Of a stretch of DNA of 41,918 nucleotides, positions 9,585 to 39,040 are shown piece by piece. The stretch lies in sequence record KX231828.1; one strand, written 5' to 3'. Source of the stretch: Enterobacter phage Arya. The stretch's first letter is position 1. Each line of letters starts with the position of its first letter. The position numbers and the translations under genes were made by a program. A model generated the notes under the pieces. That model worked only from the letters and a program-made list of their open reading frames with translations, did no database searches and was not told where the DNA came from.

Positions 9585-9923
9585 ATGAACGGAACAGACG
9601 CGACCACCGGAAAACCGCTGGATGGGCTGGCCCATTTGCAGCAATCAATAAAAGACATTCTGACCACGCCGATTGGTTCGCGTGTGATGCGGCGCGACTA
9701 TGGCAGCCGCCTGCCCCGCCTGATTGACGCACCAATGAACCGGGCCACGCTGATTGACCTGTACGCGGCCACAGCCGAAGCACTGGCCACCTGGGAACCG
9801 CGTTTCAGCGTTCAGCAGGTTGTTGCCGTATCAGCCGCACCAGGGCGCGTGGAATTGGAGGTTACAGGCGAATATCTGCCTGATGGCCAACAGGTAACGA
9901 TTGATGGAATAGTGGTGACATAA
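9585..9923 (+). CDS. baseplate protein W (P2 gpW / T4 gp25-like)
   Basis: A 112-aa ORF: LAHLQQSIKDILTTPIGSRVMRRDYGSRLPRLIDAPMN is the GPW/gp25 signature. Confidence 0.85.
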   Translation: MNGTDATTGKPLDGLAHLQQSIKDILTTPIGSRVMRRDYGSRLPRLIDAPMNRATLIDLYAATAEALATWEPRFSVQQVVAVSAAPGRVELEVTGEYLPDGQQVTIDGIVVT

Positions 9924-11413: not shown

Positions 11414-13855
11414 GTGGAACTAAAAACATACTTTGCACAGGACAGAACAGGAAACCTGATTCCGTCAGCCACAGTGTCCATTTACCTGACCGGCACAACC
11501 ACGCTGGCAACAGGTCTGAAAAATGTTTCAGGTGGAAACCTGGCTAACCCATTTAGCGCCGATGCTGACGGTAAAATCCAGTTTTATGCACCTGATGGCA
11601 TCTATGATATGCAGGTTTCGCTAGGTAGCACCACTGGCGTAAAAGTAACGTTTCAATGTTTGGACGTACAACAGCAACTGACTGACGCAAATAGCGCTGC
11701 TGACCGTGCAGAAAATGCGGCGGAAAGCATTGAAGATCAGACAGCAACGATTACCGCCAACACCCGCGAACAATGGCGCAGAGCACTGGCAGACGCCGGT
11801 TTAAGCCTTGTGTCAGGAAGTTTTGAGGAAGGGGCTACGGCCACCACAACAATTGATGCTGTATGGAACCAGGAAGGCGGACAATGCTATACCTGGGGCG
11901 GAACGCTGCCAAAAACCGTTCCGGCTAATTCGACCCCTGGAAGCACAGGTGGCGTTTCTTCTGGCGCGTGGGTTAGTGTAGCTGGAGTCATCCTAAGAAG
12001 TGATCTGTTATCAGAGGTGACATCATTAGGTGATAACTTAATCACCGTGAAACAACCTATTTCTAACAGTTCAGCCAGGAAGCTACATGATTGGGTTTCT
12101 GACCATATATCAGTAACTGACATGGCTGGTGTTGTCGGTGATGGAGTAAACGACGACGCACCAGGAATTATCGCTGCTATAACGGCGCTTTCAGCGGCAA
12201 AAAAGCCCGTGGTATTTGTCCCTGGCACATACCTGATTAGCACCAGCATTACCTTTAACACCCCGGTAAAGATCCATAATGGTGCTGTTCTAAAGGCAAG
12301 AAACGGTGCTGTTATTAGGTTCAATGCTGAAATTCAAGCTGGTGAATACAAGGTTTTTGATACAAACGATGATTTCGTAAGCAATTACCTACAGGTTCCT
12401 TCTGTCAAGATTGCGATGGGGCCGGTTCGCCCGGAATGGTTTGGCGCAAGAACGGTCAGTTCTTATGCTGAATTGGCAACGTCCATTGATTGTTCTTCGG
12501 CATTCCATAAAGCCTGGCACGCCACTTGTGGTGAATTCAATGTAGAACTAACACCAGGAAGCTTCTATCAATCTGAATTTTACCATTCTTATATTCTACT
12601 GGCGGCCGGGAAATACCGCATTGATAATAATCTTAAGTTTTGGTATCGAGTAACATCACCATCAGTCATCCGATATAACAAGAACGGCGGTGGTATTGTG
12701 GGTGCTGGAATGGGTTTATCCGTTATAGTGCTAACTAACCCGGCAGATGAAAGTAACGCTGCTATGGAGTTTAGTGATATGAGCGGCGAATTGCACATGT
12801 TCAGGGACTTCAAAGTTACCTTTTACGATTTTAACGCCACTGGTGATGCTCGCTGGTTCGGTCGTACAGGCGCAGGTATTCTGTTCTCTAGTTCAGACAG
12901 TATTTACACCCTGAATCTATGGGCGGCAGGATTTAAATATTTGAAGTTGGATGGTGATGGTGTTCGACGTGGTGGCGTTGGTATTCAGTTCGAATCGCTT
13001 GTTGATCACTTTTATGGGAACCTGCTTACTGAACATTGCGTACACGGAGTGGCGTTTAGTTCTTGTGTATCAAATGGCTATAACGCAAAAGGATTTGTAA
13101 ATACTGTAGCAGACATATCGTGTGGTAATTTTATTCCGGCCTGGCCTGACCTTATTGACCAGACAGGTATTAATTTGATCGCTTTATCCGGCCTGGAAAG
13201 TAAAGCATGTCCGGCCACTCCTATTTACTTTGGTACTGCGGACAACAGAGTTAGCATCACAAATGTAAACGTTAAAGGTAACGGTGAATCTTCATCAGCC
13301 GTAGTAACATACAGGGTTATTGATTTTAACCCTGCTGGTGGCGGCGCATCAGGACTCATTCAGGGCAATGCCATGAACGTTAACTATGGTCTTATTGATG
13401 ACCGAACCACCGGTTTTGCTGGCCGTGATGGTAGACCACTACGTTTGGTTTTTAATCTGCACAATGTTGCTGGTGCATCGTCAACAGAAACGGCAGTTGC
13501 TGTTTTCAGAAATCCACTATCAAACATAGATGTAGACATGGGTATTGATGGAGCTAAATCACCTGCGTTGATCAGTAACTGTAACCATGCAAAAGCTAAC
13601 CTTAACCTGAATAATATTTCTGGTTATACTCAAGCGCCTTATGCGGCATTCATCTGCGGAGCAGGTAAATTATTAATTCAATCCTTGAAAGTAAATGCCA
13701 CCACTAATGCGACATATCTTGGATATGCTGGCGGTTCAGCGCAGGTAATTCTTCCAGCGGCAATGGATGTTGATATCGCACCAGTCAGAAAAGGTTCTGG
13801 TTCAACAGCTGATATCAGGCAAGTATCCTCAGCTACTTATAGCACCATTCAGTAA
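11414..13855 (+). CDS. tailspike/tail fibre with pectate-lyase-like right-handed beta-helix (putative polysaccharide depolymerase)
   Basis: An 813-aa ORF: SVTDMAGVVGDGVNDDAPGIIAAITALSAAKKPVVFVPGTYLI matches the Pectate_lyase_3/tailspike beta-helix signature (GDGxxDDxxAIQAAI). GTG start. A terminator follows at about 13861-13888. Confidence 0.7.
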   Translation: MELKTYFAQDRTGNLIPSATVSIYLTGTTTLATGLKNVSGGNLANPFSADADGKIQFYAPDGIYDMQVSLGSTTGVKVTFQCLDVQQQLTDANSAADRAENAAESIEDQTATITANTREQWRRALADAGLSLVSGSFEEGATATTTIDAVWNQEGGQCYTWGGTLPKTVPANSTPGSTGGVSSGAWVSVAGVILRSDLLSEVTSLGDNLITVKQPISNSSARKLHDWVSDHISVTDMAGVVGDGVNDDAPGIIAAITALSAAKKPVVFVPGTYLISTSITFNTPVKIHNGAVLKARNGAVIRFNAEIQAGEYKVFDTNDDFVSNYLQVPSVKIAMGPVRPEWFGARTVSSYAELATSIDCSSAFHKAWHATCGEFNVELTPGSFYQSEFYHSYILLAAGKYRIDNNLKFWYRVTSPSVIRYNKNGGGIVGAGMGLSVIVLTNPADESNAAMEFSDMSGELHMFRDFKVTFYDFNATGDARWFGRTGAGILFSSSDSIYTLNLWAAGFKYLKLDGDGVRRGGVGIQFESLVDHFYGNLLTEHCVHGVAFSSCVSNGYNAKGFVNTVADISCGNFIPAWPDLIDQTGINLIALSGLESKACPATPIYFGTADNRVSITNVNVKGNGESSSAVVTYRVIDFNPAGGGASGLIQGNAMNVNYGLIDDRTTGFAGRDGRPLRLVFNLHNVAGASSTETAVAVFRNPLSNIDVDMGIDGAKSPALISNCNHAKANLNLNNISGYTQAPYAAFICGAGKLLIQSLKVNATTNATYLGYAGGSAQVILPAAMDVDIAPVRKGSGSTADIRQVSSATYSTIQ

Positions 13856-13860
13856 GTGTC

Positions 13861-13888
13861 GAACCCCGCTACGGCGGGGTATTATTTA
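13861..13888 (+). terminator. rho-independent terminator after the tailspike gene
   Basis: GAACCCCGCTACGGCGGGGTATTATTT. Confidence 0.55.
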
Positions 13889-13913
13889 AATCATTGATAA
13901 TCGTAGGCGAAAA

Positions 13914-15284
13914 ATGGCATTCATTACGATACATACAAATTACGGTTTGCAATCGCTAGCGAGAGCAGAATCCACAGGCGTACCTATCAATCTGACTCAT
14001 ATGGCTGTAGGTGATGGAAACGGTAACGCGGTAACGCCGAACCCTTCACAAACAACACTTGTGCGAGAGCAGTTCAGAGCCACCATCAATCGCGTGTATC
14101 AGTCAGCGGATGACCCGCTGCGCTTCACTGCTGAACTGGTTATACCAGCAAGCACTGGCGGTTTCACGTTGCGGGAAGTTGGCGTGTTTGATGCCGATGG
14201 TTCGCTGTTCGCCGTTGGTAATCTTCCAGACACTTACAAGCCTGTTGATACAGAAGGTGCCTACTCTGACACAGTTGTGCGACTTGATTTCATGGTGAGC
14301 AACGCCAGCACCATTACTTTGCAGGTTGATCCAAATGTTGTTGTTGTTACGCAACAATGGATTTCAAACAACGTGACGGCTGGAACAATAATTCCAGGCG
14401 GAACCACCGGGCAGGTTCTTGCCAAACAATCAAACACTGATGGTGACGTGCATTGGGTTGACCCAACACAGGCAAACGTTGTGGTTGACACCATAACCGA
14501 AAAACAAACCCTGGCAGCAAGCCAGACAGTTGTCATGCTAACTGAAACCATCACGCGCGGATTGGCTGTATATATCGAAGGCATCAGATTGCCGCAAGGT
14601 TCTGGCGTTGATGAGTGGCAGCCTGATGCGACCGACCCGGAGAAATTCACACTTGGGAAATCTTATCCTGATGGTTCTATTTTGCAGGCAGTGAATAACG
14701 AACCAGCAGGAAGCGCACCGGCACCGCTGGAACGCAGCAAAAACCTGTCAGACGTAGCAGATAAATCAACTTCACGCACAAATCTTGATGTTTTTAGCAA
14801 ATCGGAAACGCGACAGATGGCACCTGCTGGCCTGGTGGCTAGTTTTGCCAGAAGTTCAGCGCCAACAGGATGGATGAAAGCTAATGGTGCGGCAGTCAGC
14901 CGAACCGCTTACGCTGACCTGTTCGCAGCGATCGGCACCACGTTTGGAGCAGGGGATGGGCTTACCACTTTTAACCTGCCAGATCTACGCGGTGAATTTG
15001 TTCGCTACCTGGATGACGGCAGAGGCGTTGACTCAGGCCGCGCGCTTGGTTCTGCGCAATCTCACGCGCTGCAAAATATCACAGGCAAGGTTGTTGATGC
15101 CCGTTTCAACGCGAATAAATCCGCATCAGGTGCTTTCACACTAACAACCATTGGCCCTGCTGATAACGTGTCTACTGGACCAGGCAGCGCCTGCACTGTG
15201 AATTTTGACGCATCACGTGTGGCGAACACCGCCACGGAAACCAGGCCGCGAAACGTTGCCCTGTTGGCTTGCATTAAATTCTAA
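13914..15284 (+). CDS. tail fibre protein, P2 gpH-like N-terminus with C-terminal phage tail-collar domain
   Basis: The N-terminus HMAVGDGNGNAVTPNPSQTTLVREQF...FTAELVIPASTGGFTLREVGVFDADGSLFAVGNLPDTYKP matches the P2 H baseplate-attachment domain (MAVGDGGGKLPVP...IIAELVIPPEVGGFWMRELGLYDDAGTLIAV). The C-terminus TAYADLFAAIGTTFGAGDGLTTFNLPDLRGEFVR is a tail-collar motif. Confidence 0.85.
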   Translation: MAFITIHTNYGLQSLARAESTGVPINLTHMAVGDGNGNAVTPNPSQTTLVREQFRATINRVYQSADDPLRFTAELVIPASTGGFTLREVGVFDADGSLFAVGNLPDTYKPVDTEGAYSDTVVRLDFMVSNASTITLQVDPNVVVVTQQWISNNVTAGTIIPGGTTGQVLAKQSNTDGDVHWVDPTQANVVVDTITEKQTLAASQTVVMLTETITRGLAVYIEGIRLPQGSGVDEWQPDATDPEKFTLGKSYPDGSILQAVNNEPAGSAPAPLERSKNLSDVADKSTSRTNLDVFSKSETRQMAPAGLVASFARSSAPTGWMKANGAAVSRTAYADLFAAIGTTFGAGDGLTTFNLPDLRGEFVRYLDDGRGVDSGRALGSAQSHALQNITGKVVDARFNANKSASGAFTLTTIGPADNVSTGPGSACTVNFDASRVANTATETRPRNVALLACIKF

Positions 15285-15293
15285 GGCGGAAAC

Positions 15294-15599
15294 ATGAGCA
15301 CAAAAGCCGTTTATCAATATGACCTGGCTGGCATGTATACCGGTCAGACTGATGCCGATGAATCACCGCTGGAACCTGGCGTGTTCCTCATTCCTGCGCG
15401 GTGTGTTGAAGTGGCACCGCCTGAATTCACCGGTGGCCAGTGGCCGCGTTGGAATGGTGCAAAGTGGGAGCTGATCACCGTAGCACCGGCGAATGACAAT
15501 CAACCGGAAAGCCCGGTTGATAAACTGCGTGAATTCCTGAACGCAAACCCTGACGTGGCCGCGCTGATTGGCGCAACGAATGAGGCAAGCAATGTATGA
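15294..15599 (+). CDS. tail fibre assembly chaperone (Tfa / P2 gpG-like N-terminal domain)
   Basis: A 101-aa ORF immediately after the fibre gene. The motif GQWPRWNGAKWEL is the Tfa W-rich signature. Confidence 0.65.
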   Translation: MSTKAVYQYDLAGMYTGQTDADESPLEPGVFLIPARCVEVAPPEFTGGQWPRWNGAKWELITVAPANDNQPESPVDKLREFLNANPDVAALIGATNEASNV

Positions 15600-16369
15600 G
15601 CCGTGTTTTAGATTTGATCAGAGCGTTAAAGGCCGACCCGACAACAAATATTGTCACGGCTACAGTTTCACCGGTCAATCATCCTGACACCAAACAAATG
15701 GTAACCGGCGAAGCAGCCAAAGGCCGCCTGATCGGTGTTCGGGTATTTTCAACGCCAGGCGTTTCAACTTACACGCCGACGCCGGGAACCAAAGCTGTTC
15801 TGGTAGAGGTTCAGGGAGGTGGTGGCGGTGGTGGCGGAACAGGCACCACAGGTTCAGGATCGTTTGCGGCTGGTGGTTCTGGTGGTGCTGGTGGCGGTTA
15901 CGCGGCAAGTTATCTGACTTCTGGCTTTTCCAATATTGGTGTTACTGTTGGCGCTGGCGGCGGTGTTGCTGCAAACAGTGCAGGCGCTACCGGTGGAACG
16001 TCAGCATTTGGTGCGCTCATAAACTGCGCAGGTGGTGCAGGCGGTACGCTCGGAACCAGCGTAAGCACCACAAACGGAATGTTGGCCATCGGTGGTGCCA
16101 CTGGCGGAACAGCTACAGGCGGGAACATCATTAACGAACAGGGCGGCCACGGCATGTGCGCGTTTGTTAACACATCGCCATTAAGTGGCAGCGGTGGTTC
16201 CTCGCACTTCGGTTCTGGCGCTTACTACGCCAGCGGAACATCAGGAGGGCGACCAGCCACAAACCCTGGCTCTGGTGGTTCAGGTGCATGTTCATTGCAG
16301 TCTAACCCGTCAGGCATCACAGGCGGGAACGGCGCGCCAGGCATCGTGATTATTTGGGAATACGCATAA
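15596..16369 (+). CDS. glycine-rich protein of unknown function (tail-module moron or extra fibre component)
   Basis: A 257-aa ORF with ATGA coupling to tfa. It has a ~75-aa ordered N-terminus followed by about 180 aa of G/A/S/T-rich sequence (GGGGGGGGTGTTGSGSFAAGGSGGAGGG...). It sits at the G-FI junction where P2 carries Z/fun. Confidence 0.6.
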   Translation: MSRVLDLIRALKADPTTNIVTATVSPVNHPDTKQMVTGEAAKGRLIGVRVFSTPGVSTYTPTPGTKAVLVEVQGGGGGGGGTGTTGSGSFAAGGSGGAGGGYAASYLTSGFSNIGVTVGAGGGVAANSAGATGGTSAFGALINCAGGAGGTLGTSVSTTNGMLAIGGATGGTATGGNIINEQGGHGMCAFVNTSPLSGSGGSSHFGSGAYYASGTSGGRPATNPGSGGSGACSLQSNPSGITGGNGAPGIVIIWEYA

Positions 16370-23553: not shown

Positions 23554-23635
23554 TTGTCCGTGGTTCTGACCTGCCCACGGTTATTGCGTGGGCATCATTG
23601 ATTATCATCGCAATTGTATTGGGATCTTTTTAATT

Positions 23636-24400
23636 ATGACTATTCGCAAACTGTATGACGCCAAAAAGCTGAACGCCAAACGCAATGGCGGCGCATGGTT
23701 CGTTCCATTCGCTGATTTGTACATGGAACCCGGCTACAACATCCGTGACGGTGAGATCAACGCGGAGAAGGTGCAGGCGTTCGCTGATGCCTACACCGCT
23801 GGTGAATACGTGCCAGCCATCACCGTTGACGTGACTGAACAAGGGCTGCGCGTGAACGATGGCCAGCACCGCTATTTAGGCGCGAAACTGGCCATTGAAA
23901 ACGGACTGGCATCGGTCCTGCTGGAAGTGGTTGACGTTACCGGCATTGAAACCGGCAAGAAGATTGCCCGCATGGTCAACGCCAATGACGGCACGCCAAC
24001 GTCACCTATTGCCCGCGCCAATGCCTATGCCCGCATGAAGGCGGAAGGCATGACCAATGACCAGATCGCCAAAGAGGTTCACCGCAGCCCGTCAGACGTG
24101 GCCAATTTCCTGGCCCTGGCTGCCTGCCCTGACGATATCAAAGCGATGGTGAGCGCTGGCCAGATGTCCTACGTGATGGCCATTGAAATGACCAAAGAGC
24201 ATGGCGACGACGCGCCAGCCGTGGCAGCCGAAGCGCTGGAAAAGGCCAAAGCCGCTGGCAAAGAGAAGGTGACGAAGAAGTTTACGGCACCGGCAGAGCC
24301 GAAGGAACCGAAGGAACCGGCTGAACCGGCAGCAACGGCACCGAAAGCGCCGAAGGCCAAACCGGAAGCCTTACAGCCGCCGTTCGGCAAAGCCAACTGA
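23636..24400 (+). CDS. ParB-like protein: N-terminal ParB/Srx-type DGQHR domain, central ParB HTH, C-terminal K/P/E-rich tail
   Basis: VNDGQHRYLGAKLA is a DGQHR motif (ParB N-terminal/DndB-like class). MTNDQIAKEVHRSPSDVANFLALAACPDDIKAMVSAGQMSYVMAIEMTK resembles the ParB HTH plus its following helix. The track ORF starts at 23588; the ATG at 23636 with RBS is more likely. Confidence 0.65.
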   Translation: MTIRKLYDAKKLNAKRNGGAWFVPFADLYMEPGYNIRDGEINAEKVQAFADAYTAGEYVPAITVDVTEQGLRVNDGQHRYLGAKLAIENGLASVLLEVVDVTGIETGKKIARMVNANDGTPTSPIARANAYARMKAEGMTNDQIAKEVHRSPSDVANFLALAACPDDIKAMVSAGQMSYVMAIEMTKEHGDDAPAVAAEALEKAKAAGKEKVTKKFTAPAEPKEPKEPAEPAATAPKAPKAKPEALQPPFGKAN

Positions 24401-25272: not shown

Positions 25273-25349
25273 TGGCGACCCCACCAGGAATCGAACCTGG
25301 AACCTACAGCTTAGAAGGCTGTCGCTCTATCCGGTTGAGCTATGGGGCC
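25273..25349 (-). tRNA. tRNA-Arg (anticodon UCU, decodes AGA/AGG), CCA encoded
   Basis: Manual fold of the reverse complement gives acceptor GGCCCCA/TGGGGTC, D-arm GCTC-AACCGGATA-GAGC, anticodon arm ACAGC-CTTCTAA-GCTGT (U33, anticodon TCT, A37), variable AGGTT, T-arm CCAGG-TTCGATT-CCTGG, discriminator G, and CCA. Confidence 0.85.
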
Positions 25350-25461: not shown

Positions 25462-25692
25462 TCTGTTGCCAACCGCTTAGAAGGCATCAACCCGTTCACC
25501 CCGCGTGACCTGCGCCGAACCTGGAAAAGCCGCGCCGGTGACGCTGGCATTGACCGGTTCATGCGTGACATCATCCAGCAGCACGCGCAGACCGATACCG
25601 GCAGCAAACACTATGACCGGTTCGACTACCTTCCGCAGATGCGTGAAGCGATGAATAAATGGGAAACATGGTTGCAGAATGCTATAGCGTGA
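25462..25692 (+). pseudogene. 3' remnant (76 codons) of a tyrosine integrase gene
   Basis: ...NPFTPRDLRRTWKSRAGDAGIDRFMRDIIQQHAQTDTGSKHYDRFDYLPQMREAMNKWETWLQNAIA* matches the conserved C-terminus of P4/phage-type integrases (HDLRRT box and catalytic Y region). The frame is closed by TAA at 25459-25461 with no N-terminal ~250 aa present. Confidence 0.65.
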
Positions 25693-25914
25693 TGTAGAGT
25701 TATTTTATGCAGACGGTGGAGACGCTCCACGCCGGAGACGTAACCGGCACGCACCGTGATGCGCTTTTGCGAAACACTTTCCCCGTCTGGTGTTACCTCG
25801 CAAATCGTGAAAGCGCATCGCAGTGCGCCAGGCGTACTGATTGGAACTTACCCGACAATGAGTTTCCATTAAGGCAGGTGATCCGTATCTCGCATCACAG
25901 CGTTAAGTGACACA

Positions 25915-25942
25915 AAACCCCGCTTCGGCGGGGTTTTTATTT
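25915..25942. terminator. bidirectional rho-independent terminator
   Basis: AAAACCCCGCTTCGGCGGGGTTTTTATTT has an A-run and a T-run flanking a GC stem, between convergent plus-strand and minus-strand transcription units. Confidence 0.7.
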
Positions 25943-25944
25943 GG

Positions 25945-26628
25945 TCATTCTTCGGGGCTTTCGTCATCGCCTTGCGCTTTCATCGGCCCATGTTCCGGGC
26001 AGTGCGGCGCGCCAACATCCAGCCACTTTTGCGTAACGCGCACCGTGTAGCCGCATTCCTCGCATTCGCATTTTTTCAGCCTGGTTGACTGTTTCGGTTT
26101 TGCCGTGGACGCACCGCCGACCGGTGCCACTTCAATTTCTTCGCCTTCATCGTCATCGCCTGATTCATCCATGCCAATGCGCAGGCGCGGCACCTTAATG
26201 GACATCCCACGATCAAACGTCAGTTTGGCGTGAGGCATCGGCCCCAATTCATCCGGGAACGGTTTCACGTACTCTTTGAACGCTTCACCAGGCGTGGTGG
26301 CGGTCATCGGTCCATTCAGGCCAACAGCCTTGCAGACCTTCGCAAACGCACCCTTGTGGCCGCAGTCAAAGCCAACAGCGGCGTGTGTCAGTTCGTGCCA
26401 CAGGTGGTTTGCAACCATGAACGGTTCAACCTGGTCAGGCATGATGAATATTTCAAACGTGTTGTCACTGGAACACTTGCTATGCCAGCAATGTGCTGCC
26501 GTACTGGAACGCGCACCGCTGCTGCAAAAGCCAACTGACACGCGGAATTTAGGCAGTTCATAACCGAATTCTTTGAAACGTGGCGCGAACTTCGCAGCCA
26601 GAGCATTCAACCAACCTTCACGATCCAT
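25945..26628 (-). CDS. SprT-like zinc metalloprotease domain protein with C-terminal zinc ribbon
   Basis: It carries HELTH (HExxH) in WHELTHAAVGFDCGHKG and C-terminal CECEECGYTVRVTQ...HCPEHG. The leader TTACCTCGCAATT is shared with the recE-like gene. Confidence 0.65.
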   Translation of the reverse strand: MDREGWLNALAAKFAPRFKEFGYELPKFRVSVGFCSSGARSSTAAHCWHSKCSSDNTFEIFIMPDQVEPFMVANHLWHELTHAAVGFDCGHKGAFAKVCKAVGLNGPMTATTPGEAFKEYVKPFPDELGPMPHAKLTFDRGMSIKVPRLRIGMDESGDDDEGEEIEVAPVGGASTAKPKQSTRLKKCECEECGYTVRVTQKWLDVGAPHCPEHGPMKAQGDDESPEE

Positions 26629-27235: not shown

Positions 27236-27446
27236 CCTATTTACGTTTTAAGTGTGCGGCGTGCTCACTGGCACAAACCGCATCGCAATAAATTTTCTTG
27301 CTGCCCGAGTCGAAATCTTCACCACAGTTCAGGCAGTAACCCTGCGGCACAGCATGACCAGCCTATGCCTTCTGGAAGTGCGCAGCAATTGCCGCCGCGC
27401 GTTCCCGTTCTTCGCGCTCGCTTGCGCGGTCCATATCGTCAGCCAT
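27236..27446 (-). pseudogene. TraR/DksA-family-like C4 zinc-finger gene interrupted by an in-frame TAG (27363-27365)
   Basis: The N-terminal part MADDMDRASEREERERAAAIAAHFQKA is a typical TraR-like N-terminus. It is followed by TAG and then, in the same frame, [41 protein letters not shown] (CxxC...CxxxC). The downstream part has only a GTG as a possible independent start. Confidence 0.5.
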
Positions 27447-27858
27447 CGTGCACCCCAAAGCGGCCAGGTGCAGCCGTGCATTTATCGTGGTGGTGGCCAT
27501 CAACGTGCTGGCACACCGGGCAGCAATCGCGCGGCTGTTCGTTGTCGTTGCCAGCTACTGGCTGGCCGTGACGTTCCAGCCAGATTACCGCGCCAGCCAG
27601 GTAGACAATCGCGCCCAACAGTTCACGCACTGCGGCGTCAACCTGGCCACGGTTGGCCATGCCCTGCGCTTCTTCGGATTTCTTATCCGCCTGGCCTAAA
27701 ATGAAGCCAACGCCACGGCGGTCAGCGATCAGTTGCATAGGCTGCTGGTGGAAAGGCTTGTTGTCAGCGTGACGTTCAGCGCCTTTGCCAACTGCTGCCT
27801 GGTCAAACGCGCGTTCCAGGACATTGGCCAGACGGCCATAACCATCAACGTTCATCAT
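27439..27858 (-). CDS. hypothetical protein with C-terminal Cys/His cluster (CCPVCQHVDGHHHDKC)
   Basis: About 140 aa. The start ATGATGAACGTTGA overlaps the stop of the Xis-like gene, and the stop overlaps the TraR-like start (ATGGCTGA). Confidence 0.5.
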   Translation of the reverse strand: MMNVDGYGRLANVLERAFDQAAVGKGAERHADNKPFHQQPMQLIADRRGVGFILGQADKKSEEAQGMANRGQVDAAVRELLGAIVYLAGAVIWLERHGQPVAGNDNEQPRDCCPVCQHVDGHHHDKCTAAPGRFGVHDG

Positions 27859-28066
27859 TGTCGTTTGCCCCAATCATGTTCTTTGCTTCATACGCTTCCA
27901 CACTTTCCAGCTTGTAGCGCACGCGCGAACCGAATTTAGTGTAAGCCGGACCCTTACCCTGATTACGCCAGTTCGCCAGGGTGCCGGTGGTAACAGCGCC
28001 GTTCCAGCGCTGAACCAGTTCCTGTGGCGTCAGATATGCAGATTGTTTCTGTGCCGGTAGTGCCAT
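27845..28066 (-). CDS. excisionase/AlpA-like (MerR-type HTH) small DNA-binding protein
   Basis: A 73-aa ORF: LTPQELVQRWNGAVTTGTLANWRNQGKGPAYTKFGSRVRYKLESVEAY is the AlpA/Xis-family HTH signature. Confidence 0.6.
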   Translation of the reverse strand: MALPAQKQSAYLTPQELVQRWNGAVTTGTLANWRNQGKGPAYTKFGSRVRYKLESVEAYEAKNMIGANDNDER

Positions 28067-30492: not shown

Positions 30493-30573
30493 TTGTTACC
30501 TCGCAATTGATTGATGATATAACGTGATGTAGCGTGAAAACGAAGCAAGTATAAATAAGTAATATTATTGCTG

Positions 30574-31116
30574 TCAAATCTTTCTGTGGTGGCCTATTAC
30601 TTTGCCGATTACTTCCAGGCGTTCATCTGCCCAAGTAAAATCGACCTTATAAAGCGGATTATCGCAAGTAAGCCTAATCCCGCCTTCCAGATTGCGATGA
30701 CCGCGAACCAGGCGAGCTTCACCGTTCAAAATGATGGCGTAAACGCCAGCGTTGTCGATCCATGTAATCGACTTATCAATAAAGCAGTGGTCACCCTGCG
30801 CGAACGTGGGGGCCATCATATCGGTGGCGACAACTACCAGGCTGATGCGTTCCGCTGGAATGTCATAGAACTGCGCCAGGCCAGCCAGCGCGGATTCATT
30901 CAGGTCAGCACTGTTCGTTAGTGGCAGCGACCGCGCCAGCAGTTCTTCTTTGCTGCACCCAATAGCGGCGGCCAGCTTATCGAGAATTACCAGCGTCACC
31001 CGTTGTGGTTCGCGCTCCCACCGGCTGACCGTCACGGCGGTGGTTTTTAGTTTTTCAGCCACGTCCTGCAACGTAAGCCCGGCTGCCTGGCGGCGCTCTC
31101 TGATGCGGTTTGGCAT
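30574..31116 (-). CDS. CI-like repressor: N-terminal XRE-type HTH + C-terminal LexA/S24-like domain apparently lacking the catalytic Ser
   Basis: The HTH region is LTLQDVAEKLKTTAVTVSRWER. The C-terminal domain aligns with lambda cI/LexA S24, with the Lys motif EVIGKVIG present, but the G-D-S-M nucleophile motif reads T-D-M-M (VVVATDMMAPTFAQGDHCFID against VxGDSMxPxhxxGDxhhVD). Confidence 0.8.
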   Translation of the reverse strand: MPNRIRERRQAAGLTLQDVAEKLKTTAVTVSRWEREPQRVTLVILDKLAAAIGCSKEELLARSLPLTNSADLNESALAGLAQFYDIPAERISLVVVATDMMAPTFAQGDHCFIDKSITWIDNAGVYAIILNGEARLVRGHRNLEGGIRLTCDNPLYKVDFTWADERLEVIGKVIGHHRKI

Positions 31117-31285
31117 ATCGCTGTTTCCTTAACGTTCACGGTGAATGGACGGTTACCGGTACGGTTGATCCGAGTCAAGCCAGAGTCTATTTTCTTCACC
31201 GCTGTGGAAAACCATAGTTGGTTTCATGTACAATGACGTAAATCAATTAACCGTTACAGACAATGAATAACCGTGAAGGGCAATT
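31117..31285. promoter_or_regulatory. divergent early promoter/operator region between the repressor and the helicase operon
   Basis: A 169-bp gap with repeated half-site-like motifs: TTCACGG (31135) and its complement CCGTGAA (31271), plus ACGGTT/AACCGT four times (31150, 31162, 31252, 31271). A related ACGTGA/GCGTGAA pair lies downstream of cI at 30522-30538. Confidence 0.4.
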
Positions 31286-34506: not shown

Positions 34507-34545
34507 AAATTCTTAAATGGTCCTGCTATAGTAGGACCATTGTTT
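34507..34545 (+). terminator. rho-independent terminator / near-perfect 13-bp inverted repeat
   Basis: AATGGTCCTGCTA-TAGTAGGACCATT followed by GTTTATTTC. Confidence 0.6.
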
Positions 34546-34572
34546 ATTTCATTACTGATGGCGACGACATTT

Positions 34573-34767
34573 ATGAATAAGAATACGGAAAAACTAATTG
34601 CTCTGATGAACGCGCACCAGCTTACCTGCCGTGATGTTGGTAATATGTTGGGCCGCACTGTTTCAACCGTTCGCGTATGGCGCTGCGCCAACCCCGAAAG
34701 CCCGACCATCCCGAATGGACAGCTTGAATTGCTGGAACTGAAACTGGCGCAGCAGGCAGCACAGTGA
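34573..34767 (+). CDS. small HTH DNA-binding protein (putative replication-module regulator)
   Basis: MNKNTEKLIALMNAHQLTCRDVGNMLGRTVSTVRVWRCAN has an HTH pattern. It is the first gene after the terminator and upstream of the primase. Confidence 0.5.
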   Translation: MNKNTEKLIALMNAHQLTCRDVGNMLGRTVSTVRVWRCANPESPTIPNGQLELLELKLAQQAAQ

Positions 34768-38211: not shown

Positions 38212-38285
38212 ACAACATCATTTTCATCTACGCCATCAGCGCACTGCTGGTGGCACATGCACTGATTGAATTGGGGGTTTTATGA
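38208..38285 (+). CDS. tiny hydrophobic peptide (25 aa, GTG start)
   Basis: VNNIIFIYAISALLVAHALIELGVL, overlapping the stop and start of its neighbours (GTGA and ATGA). Speculative. Confidence 0.2.
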   Translation: MNNIIFIYAISALLVAHALIELGVL

Positions 38286-39040
38286 AAGAACAACTGTACC
38301 GCCTGGCCAGACATATTGCCGCTGCAAAAGGCGGTCTGCCAGCAGAATGGCAGGATTGGGCGGAAGAAATTGAATCCGACCTGCGCCGGTTATCATCGCA
38401 GTCAGAGCCGGTGGCCAGTTTTGAAGAAGCCGTGGAACTGTTCAAAACAATGAACATTGGTTTTCCTGTTGAGCGCACGAAAGCTGACTATGTGATTGGC
38501 TGGTGCCTGGCCAACATGTTCCAGCCAGGTCAGGAACGCCGCCAGGTGCGCGCTGACCACGCTGAATGGTCACAGGAAGCGTTTGGCGACGTTGGCCCTG
38601 TTGGACCACTGAAACACCTGTCAATAGAAGCGCTGGAAGCCGCAGCAGCGCCAGGCGACCTTTCTGAATGGGCTGACATGCAATTCCTGCTGTGGGATGC
38701 GCAGCGCCGTGCTGGCATCACTGACGAGCAAATTACGCAGGCCATGATTGATAAGCTGGCAGTGAACAAAGCGCGCACCTGGCAGGAACCTAAAGACGGA
38801 GAACCGCGCCTGCACATCCAGCCGGATAATGACAACACCGCGCAGCAGTTTGAAGCGCTGGCCACCAGCAATGCCCATGATTGCTTATGGTCATATGACA
38901 GCCATCAAGGAACATGGCATGGCAAGTGCGGCGTTTATTGGGTGTTCATGGACGATGGCCCGGATGAAAACGGGATGAAGTTCTGCCCTGGGTGCGGCAA
39001 GCCGGTTTCTACCACCAGCGCGGGGAGCGGCAAGCAATGA
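38282..39040 (+). CDS. DUF550-type dATP/dGTP pyrophosphohydrolase (MazG-like) domain protein with N-terminal extension and C-terminal zinc ribbon
   Basis: ADHAEWSQEAFGDVGPVGPLKHLSIEALEAAAAPGDLSEWADMQFLLWDAQRRAGITDEQITQAMIDKLAVNKARTWQEPKDGEPRLHI matches the phage DUF550 signature. The C-terminus is HGKCGVYWVF...CPGCGKP. Confidence 0.7.
   Translation: MKEQLYRLARHIAAAKGGLPAEWQDWAEEIESDLRRLSSQSEPVASFEEAVELFKTMNIGFPVERTKADYVIGWCLANMFQPGQERRQVRADHAEWSQEAFGDVGPVGPLKHLSIEALEAAAAPGDLSEWADMQFLLWDAQRRAGITDEQITQAMIDKLAVNKARTWQEPKDGEPRLHIQPDNDNTAQQFEALATSNAHDCLWSYDSHQGTWHGKCGVYWVFMDDGPDENGMKFCPGCGKPVSTTSAGSGKQ

Follow-up and report, generated by a model that had tools for sequence, protein, structure and literature searches.

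A predicted non-catalytic S24-fold CI-type repressor in the decaying lysogeny module of Enterobacter phage Arya

Results

The CI-like repressor gene lies between two divergent early operons

The window, that is the whole stretch of DNA analyzed here, comprises 41,918 nucleotides of Enterobacter phage Arya (KX231828.1). It contains an open reading frame of 180 amino acids plus stop codon (30574..31116, minus strand) whose product is identical to YP_009284306.1, named 'CI-like repressor' of this phage. The gene is located between divergent early operons, and promoter-like sites are present on both of its sides. The repressor stop codon is overlapped by a strong sigma-70-like promoter (TTGACA-18-TATACT, 11/12; 30548..30577, minus strand) that is oriented towards the leftward early operon and would drive it; this operon encodes exoVIII-like, AAA_24, Xis-like HTH_17, SSB and SprT-like proteins. 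The rightward promoter-like site (TGGAAA-18-TACAAT; 31205..31234, plus strand), which would serve the helicase/primase early operon, is weaker than the leftward one.

Short repeats accompany both promoters. Two conserved TCACGnT half-sites (30515..30540, minus strand) lie just downstream of the leftward promoter, three direct CACGGT/ACGGTT half-sites spaced by about 12 bp (31135..31168, plus strand) adjoin the repressor start codon, and two ACGGTT half-sites 20 bp apart (31247..31280, minus strand) are situated between the rightward promoter and the helicase ATG. The ACGGTT motif occurs four times in the two intergenic regions, compared to an expectation of 0.21 (p ~7e-5), and both the promoters and the ACGGTT/TCACGnT repeats are conserved in six phages carrying Ser-, Thr- or Met-type repressors (see below). 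Motif enrichment and conservation thus mark the three clusters as candidate operators. In phages ep3 and KA2-1, the exoVIII-helicase intergenic DNA (~270 bp) has no relation to that of Arya and contains hardly any of these repeats. Since both phages lack the repressor gene, the repeats appear to be tied to the repressor.

The domain composition of the protein is that of a phage repressor. Pfam assigns residues 5–59 to HTH_3 (E 1.9e-12) and residues 83–174 to Peptidase_S24 (PF00717; E 4.4e-9, 36.5 bits versus a cutoff of 23.3), the latter match taking in profile positions 28–116 only, so that positions 1–27, which contain the cleavage site, are unmatched. In PHROGs the protein falls into phrog_4, 'transcriptional repressor' (E 1.3e-25). 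An AlphaFold2 model (mean pLDDT 88.7), for which 48 homologues were used, comprises five N-terminal helices, a further helix at residues 74–84 and a beta-domain from residue 91 onwards. Foldseek superimposes the modelled C-terminal domain on the M. tuberculosis (Mtb) LexA C-domain (6a2s; TM 0.75, rmsd 1.8 Å) and also matches it to the lambda cI C-domain and UmuD'. We hence distinguish an N-terminal Cro/C1-type HTH domain (residues 1–62; 30931..31116, minus strand), which is near-invariant in homologues, and a C-terminal LexA/cI-fold, Peptidase_S24-like domain (residues 91–180; 30577..30846, minus strand). An earlier note, made from the letters of this DNA, had assigned the C-terminal domain to the LexA/cI S24 type; the PF00717 match and the LexA-type beta-fold of the model agree on this assignment.

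The same two-domain layout, an N-terminal HTH followed by a C-terminal LexA-fold beta-domain, is found in lambda cI, P22 C2 and LexA, with which the Arya protein also has in common the motifs D-x-M-x-P-T, G-D, D-N-x-x-Y and a C-terminal G-[KR]-V strand, as well as the position of the gene between divergent early operons with repeated operator-like sites. At 180 amino acids it is shorter than these proteins (202–237 amino acids). Unlike in lambda-type phages, there is no adjacent cro in Arya, the first rightward gene being the helicase; within the rightward operon, a small HTH protein (34540..34767, plus strand) of phrog_14341, 'transcriptional repressor', is the sole Cro-like candidate.

Both residues of the Ser-Lys dyad are missing

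S24-type repressors cleave themselves by means of a Ser-Lys dyad, and the Arya protein was compared to LexA at both catalytic positions. Profile alignment to PDB chains of the Mtb LexA C-domain places the family motif 'tDaM' on the LexA motif 'GDSM'. This motif is GDAM in the S160A mutant chain of Mtb LexA, which positions Met100 of Arya (codon 30817..30819, minus strand) at the nucleophile S160. The reading of TDMM in place of G-D-S-M in the earlier note is thus confirmed. The general base is the lysine of 'ATVKTF', as shown by the K197A mutant chain of Mtb LexA. To set the base register, hmmalign was used to align 122 wider relatives, obtained by an exhaustive profile search, as well as LexA and UmuD, to the family HMM. 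Canonical relatives read G-D-S-M ... V-K-R, and their lysine corresponds to family column 137, occupied in Arya by Val137 (codon 30706..30708, minus strand). This column (LexA K156, motif x-T-V-K-R-L) holds lysine in 79/122 wider relatives and in LexA and UmuD. Arg138 (codon 30703-30705, minus strand), directly after Val137, is the counterpart of LexA R157 and is invariant in all 122 wider relatives and all 48 family members. A HMMER gapped alignment to Mtb LexA, which had put Arg138 on the catalytic lysine, was dropped, as the 122 relatives reading V-K-R favour Val137.

The earlier note had further held that the general-base lysine is kept in EVIGKVIG. This does not stand: the residue is Lys172 (codon 30601..30603, minus strand) in the last beta-strand, a non-catalytic column that holds R in 96, K in 21 and Q in five of the relatives (n = 122) and K in 'VLGKVVT' of Mtb LexA. 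Hence, not one but both dyad residues are missing from the repressor.

A conserved Ala-Gly cleavage site or a hairpin preceding the core was not found in the Pfam profile match, the homologue alignment or the AlphaFold2 model; the pair Ala78-Gly79 is contained in the predicted helix 74–84 and varies among homologues. Compared to lambda cI, P22 C2 and LexA, the Arya repressor consequently differs by Ser to Met and Lys to Val replacements as well as by the lack of a conserved Ala-Gly and of a cleavage-site hairpin. Since Ser and Lys of the dyad are both absent, canonical Ser-Lys self-cleavage on RecA filaments should be impossible. The earlier prediction that RecA-stimulated self-cleavage does not take place, originally drawn from the Ser to Met exchange, is strengthened by the Lys to Val exchange and the missing cleavage site. 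Judged from its sequence, we consider the Arya protein a CI-type repressor with a non-catalytic S24 fold.

Loss of the dyad is common to the repressor family

The family was surveyed through 48 cluster representatives that are 33–96% identical. Their nucleophile column holds M in 17, T in 12, A in six, S in five, V in four, I in three and H in one, and not a single lysine is found in the base column (V 24, I 7, C 4, F 3, A 3, R 3, L 2, M 1, Y 1). Position 100, with an entropy of 2.41 bits, is flanked by two zero-entropy positions; D99, M101, P103, G108 and R138 are invariant among the 48 representatives. Since 17/48 representatives also read Met at the nucleophile position, the Met of Arya is not a sequencing error. 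The orthologues of phages HeidiAbel (Ser-type, TDSM) and PT1 (Thr-type, TDTM) likewise have Val at the base column and are, going by these residues, probably equally unable to self-cleave. Among the 122 wider relatives, Ser and Lys are combined in 71 and Ala and Arg in 16, and degenerate S24 repressors are therefore common in the neighbourhood of the Arya repressor family.

Two further features of the alignment are recorded here. T98 (codon 30823-30825, minus strand), two residues upstream of the nucleophile position, is Thr or Ser in 44/48 family members, as opposed to Gly in canonical S24 proteins; Arg135 is shared by 39/48. The HTH domain (residues 1–62) is almost invariant, e.g. in S31-R32-W33-E34-R35-E36, across homologues that are only 33–60% identical overall; unlike typical temperate-phage repressors, neither this domain nor the operator-like repeats display a diversification of immunity specificity.

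Pairwise dN/dS values amount to 0.13–0.27 for the full repressor gene in comparison with five relatives and to 0.05–0.21 for the C-terminal domain within the Met-type clade, although these values mostly reflect the history shared with integrase-bearing relatives and say little on the present function in Arya. The dyad-less state is common to the whole repressor family and is maintained under purifying selection. As the gene is still under such selection, the pseudo-protease domain is probably retained for a structural role, most likely in oligomerisation. Since the loss of the dyad is family-wide and selectively maintained, the ancestral switch of Jilinvirus-like phages would be independent of SOS autocleavage.

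The lysogeny module of Arya is decaying

Arya has been described as a lytic phage that forms small clear plaques and has an integrase pseudogene, and according to its genome announcement it contains neither repressor nor antirepressor genes (PMC5754474); hence, the repressor open reading frame was overlooked there. The integrase remnant consists of the last 74 codons only (25468..25692, plus strand), which are 89% identical to the C-terminus of the 403-amino acid HeidiAbel integrase. It is of the P4 type, and the close relatives L004, L085 and L086 keep the full gene. Adjoining the remnant is a tRNA-Arg(TCT) gene (25273..25349, minus strand), found in the same position in integrase-bearing relatives, and the leftward operon includes the gene for the Xis-like HTH_17 protein (27845..28066, minus strand). 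A gene for a TraR/DksA-like zinc-finger protein of 69 amino acids (27237-27446, minus strand) contains an in-frame TAG at codon 28 (27363-27365); L004 has an uninterrupted orthologue (9710-9919). The homologue of HeidiAbel Bas97_0031 (hyp31; 25708-25967, minus strand) matches in two reading frames, which suggests that it is frameshifted in Arya.

The repressor itself carries three unusual residues, G24K, P43V and G85D, each at a position conserved in at least 90% of homologues. K24 (codon 31045-31047) replaces the HTH-turn glycine present in 44/48 homologues, Lys being found elsewhere only in P0004, and this exchange may weaken DNA binding. Taken together, the truncated integrase, the nonsense codon in the TraR-like gene, the frameshift in the neighbouring open reading frame and G24K mark the lysogeny module of Arya as decaying. 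Since only 74 integrase codons remain and the phage has been published as lytic, there is probably no prophage to induce in Arya.

Distribution of the repressor among relatives

The nearest sequenced phages of Arya are Jilinvirus members, namely HeidiAbel_Bas97, Salmonella PT1, ep3, ECOO78 and ECO1230-10. The repressors of HeidiAbel and PT1 are 64% and 62% identical to that of Arya, of the same length and encoded at the same genomic position; their regulatory DNA is conserved as well, and unlike Arya both genomes keep a 403-amino acid integrase. Met-type relatives with 96%, 89% and 85% identity are found on phage-sized contigs with intact 403-amino acid integrases, and in intact genomes the repressor gene co-occurs with the integrase and the Xis-like gene. 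The gene is missing from ep3 and KA2-1. A protein search returned a homologue in only four phage records, from which it follows that ECOO78, ECO1230-10 and Alux-21 also lack it. All five are viable lytic phages. The repressor is dispensable for lytic growth, since ep3 and KA2-1 are viable without the gene.

The lifestyle of the Jilinvirus group has been termed 'enigmatic'; several isolates have lost cI and integrase or carry them in a decayed form, and the cI-like repressors of HeidiAbel (Bas97) and Salmonella phage PT1 have been called 'seemingly intact' (PMC11990801). HeidiAbel nevertheless forms clear plaques (PMC11990801), despite consensus residues at positions 24, 43 and 85 of its repressor and an intact integrase. 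Searches for an integrated copy gave the following results. The repressor/helicase DNA had no match in 5,426 complete E. coli genomes in either near or distant mode, and the GTDB representative genomes contained only distant HTH matches to the repressor, the best full-length one stemming from Vreelandella (32%). No integrated prophage with the repressor was detected in the assemblies holding homologues, all long contigs of which are phage-sized and in unintegrated gene order. The putative role of the repressor in maintaining lysogeny is deduced from its gene context and from prophages listed in PMC11990801, namely in E. coli USECESBL382 (contig AATBGZ010000031) and Aeromonas media T0.1-19 (CP038441).

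One metagenomic contig, L093 (ENA ERZ15232937 NODE_126), encodes a 189-amino acid repressor homologue with no integrase called; at its positions 1-75, a ribosome-modulation-factor-like gene (weak Pfam match) is located directly beside the primase gene. This contig may represent an integrated or cryptic element.

Other parts of the Arya genome also deserve mention. The 252-amino acid protein encoded at 38282-39040 (plus strand) combines a dATP/dGTP pyrophosphohydrolase domain (PF04447, E 8.7e-38) with a zinc ribbon at its C-terminus; it is absent from HeidiAbel at the same position. The tail-fibre region (11414-16369) is unlike that of HeidiAbel, with an 813-amino acid open reading frame and extra open reading frames with little or no match, which is consistent with a different host range. 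A ParB-like (HTH_ParB) protein (23588-24400, plus strand) is encoded without a ParA partner and is conserved in relatives near the integrase side.

Searches for LexA boxes and antirepressor genes

The earlier note had proposed that induction is driven by an antirepressor, possibly encoded by one of the small genes of the phage. We scanned intergenic DNA for LexA boxes using a 20-mer consensus with a cut-off of at least 13/20 matches and at most one core mismatch. No site reaching this cut-off was present in the intergenic DNA of Arya, of the whole HeidiAbel genome or of the related loci L002, L004, L085, L086 and L089, which were scanned over their early regions and include three relatives with an intact integrase. 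The pattern CTGT-N8-ACAG with at most one mismatch occurs at 24 sites in Arya compared to 14.9 expected, nearly all of them inside structural genes. The only intergenic one, at 31202-31217 (CTGTGGAAAACCATAG), was rejected as a LexA box on account of a core mismatch and its lack of conservation in five relatives.

Similarly, no match to an antirepressor family (Ant, KilAC, Bro, Tum-like or otherwise annotated) was obtained in PHROGs and/or Pfam for about 24 open reading frames of Arya and integrase-bearing relatives, most of them small or unannotated, small antirepressors being diverse. With neither a LexA box nor a known antirepressor family and with a truncated integrase, the proposal finds no support, and for the lytic, integrase-less Arya an antirepressor model is probably moot.

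An open reading frame of the leftward operon (25945-26628, minus strand) encodes a 227-amino acid protein with a HELTH (HExxH) motif and a C-terminal zinc ribbon. The protein is 91% identical to that of HeidiAbel and thereby among the best conserved of the early region. It has no PDB or Pfam match of its own; its homologues are named SprT-like, and some match PF10263. We dropped the idea that it inactivates the repressor as a trans-acting protease, as nothing links this open reading frame to the repressor.

Discussion

A CI-type repressor probably inherited with a lysogeny module

Our data are best explained by a CI-type repressor that belongs to an inherited Jilinvirus lysogeny module, has a dead S24 domain and is leftover or weakly functional in Arya, a reading to which we assign a probability of about three in four. 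The lysogeny module of Jilinvirus-like phages would consist of the repressor, a P4-type integrase beside tRNA-Arg and the Xis-like HTH protein. The N-terminal HTH domain of the repressor is predicted to bind DNA and to be followed by a short, partly helical linker, while the C-terminal domain would keep the LexA/cI beta-fold without the Ser-Lys dyad (Met100, Val137) and may have been retained as an oligomerisation scaffold. The repressor could repress the divergent early promoters by binding to the ACGGTT/TCACGnT repeats, two clusters of which follow the leftward and rightward promoters at a short distance and the third of which adjoins the repressor start. Since the module is decaying and the plaques are clear, the repressor of Arya has most likely been left over or works only weakly, and there would be no prophage for it to release. 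Among the points against this explanation, a near-invariant HTH that shows no diversification of immunity is atypical for a classical immunity repressor, and the explanation does not account for the family-specific Thr/Ser at the -2 position (T98; 44/48).

Replacement of the catalytic residues in an otherwise conserved S24 fold is known from non-peptidase S24 homologues and dyad-less LexA-like proteins, such as LexA of Synechocystis PCC 6803, in which DNA-binding regulation is uncoupled from RecA-stimulated cleavage. The Arya family differs from these in that its members are phage repressors whose dyad columns vary (seven and nine residue types) next to invariant neighbours. Repressors that are inactivated by antirepressors instead of cleavage comprise 186 CI (Tum), the Gifsy repressors GfoR-GtgR (GfoA-GfhA) and N15 CB (AntC) (PMC3121763). 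They are unable to self-cleave, as is predicted for the Arya protein, and by analogy their mode of induction offers a logical route for the integrase-bearing relatives. These phages have a LexA box upstream of the antirepressor gene, whereas none was found in Arya, HeidiAbel and the five related loci, nor did the scan of about 24 open reading frames yield a homologue of their antirepressors. The C-domain of 186 CI moreover belongs to a different fold family (whole-chain TM only ~0.33 in Foldseek). The analogy to Gifsy drawn in the earlier note therefore holds for the mechanistic likeness but not for descent, the Gifsy repressors being 136-amino acid proteins of a different family (PMC3121763). 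The regulatory module of Francisella phage KIRK is unrelated and uninformative here (PMC7924643).

Alternative explanations

It is possible but doubtful that the Arya gene has become a non-functional relic, with a repressor disabled by G24K, P43V and G85D, which together with the integrase deletion would explain the clear plaques. Three substitutions at sites where at least 90% of homologues agree, with G24K otherwise confined to P0004, would fit such a relic, as would the visible decay of other left-arm genes and the complete deletion of the gene in related lytic phages. On the other hand, the open reading frame is full length and intact, its promoter and operator-like repeats are intact as well, and the C-terminal domain has a single non-synonymous difference from the nearest integrase-bearing relative. 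A dead repressor is also not required for clear plaques, since HeidiAbel forms them with consensus residues and an intact integrase (PMC11990801). We consider it rather improbable that the gene is instead kept for lytic growth or competition, e.g. for the timing of the early operons or the exclusion of related superinfecting phages. Its intactness in Arya and the clear-plaque HeidiAbel, for which no temperate behaviour has been observed (PMC5754474, PMC11990801), the seemingly intact integrase and cI genes of PT1 (PMC11990801), purifying selection on the gene and the near-invariance of HTH domain and operator-like repeats, which is unlike diversifying immunity modules, all speak for such a role; yet ep3, KA2-1, ECOO78, ECO1230-10 and Alux-21 are viable and lytic without the gene, the repeats are nearly missing in ep3 and KA2-1, and in intact genomes the gene accompanies the integrase and the Xis-like gene.

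A working, non-cleavable immunity repressor that is induced by an antirepressor, encoded either by a small phage open reading frame or by a LexA-regulated host or prophage gene, appears unlikely to us. Non-cleavability is well supported, there is precedent for antirepressor control of such repressors (PMC3121763), many small early open reading frames have no known function, and for the Met-type relatives, which keep intact integrases, some route of inactivation is plausible. Arya, however, has 74 integrase codons and clear plaques (PMC5754474), no LexA box reached the cut-off in Arya, HeidiAbel or the five related loci, the near-match at 31202-31217 is not conserved in relatives, and none of the about 24 open reading frames matches a known antirepressor. 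Finally, the protein might still cleave itself through a non-canonical nucleophile such as Thr/Ser98 with another base, Arg135 or Arg138. Column 98 is indeed Thr/Ser in 44/48 members and Gly in canonical proteins, and both arginines are frequent in the family (39/48 and 48/48, respectively), but the invariance of Arg138 in canonical Ser-Lys relatives (122/122) means that it is not a replacement base, no conserved cleavage site was found and the cleavage-site region is unmatched in the Pfam profile. As we furthermore know of no precedent for an S24 enzyme with a dyad of the Thr/Ser98-Arg type, we regard this as extremely improbable.

Implications for Jilinvirus-type phages

Under the preferred reading, an inherited CI-type repressor with a dead S24 domain, Arya itself is an ordinary case: a phage already published as lytic whose lysogeny module is in decay; its integrase pseudogene, too, has been published before. 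That the whole family has lost the dyad adds a modest new point on the lifestyle of the group. This loss bears on how the group is described. In annotation pipelines and in published comparisons the labels 'CI-like' and 'seemingly intact' rest on the match to the S24 domain, and such a label implies SOS-inducible lysogeny. Since no family member has the Ser-Lys dyad, Jilinvirus-type phages are not expected to act as SOS-inducible prophages. Several of them are considered for therapy, and the presence of this repressor gene alone is weak evidence for temperate behaviour. A broader proposal, which we hold to be unlikely, is that the repressors are pseudo-proteases family-wide, with a dead S24 domain repurposed as the receiver of a non-SOS input, e.g. 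a phage or host protein or a signal of another kind, that governs a rare facultative lysogeny; alternatively, the repressor could act as a lytic timing or exclusion factor. If true, either version would help to explain the 'enigmatic' lifestyle of the group, in which intact-looking lysogeny genes are combined with no observed lysogens or induction. The dyad-less repressor thus provides a concrete, testable handle on the lifestyle of the Jilinvirus group.
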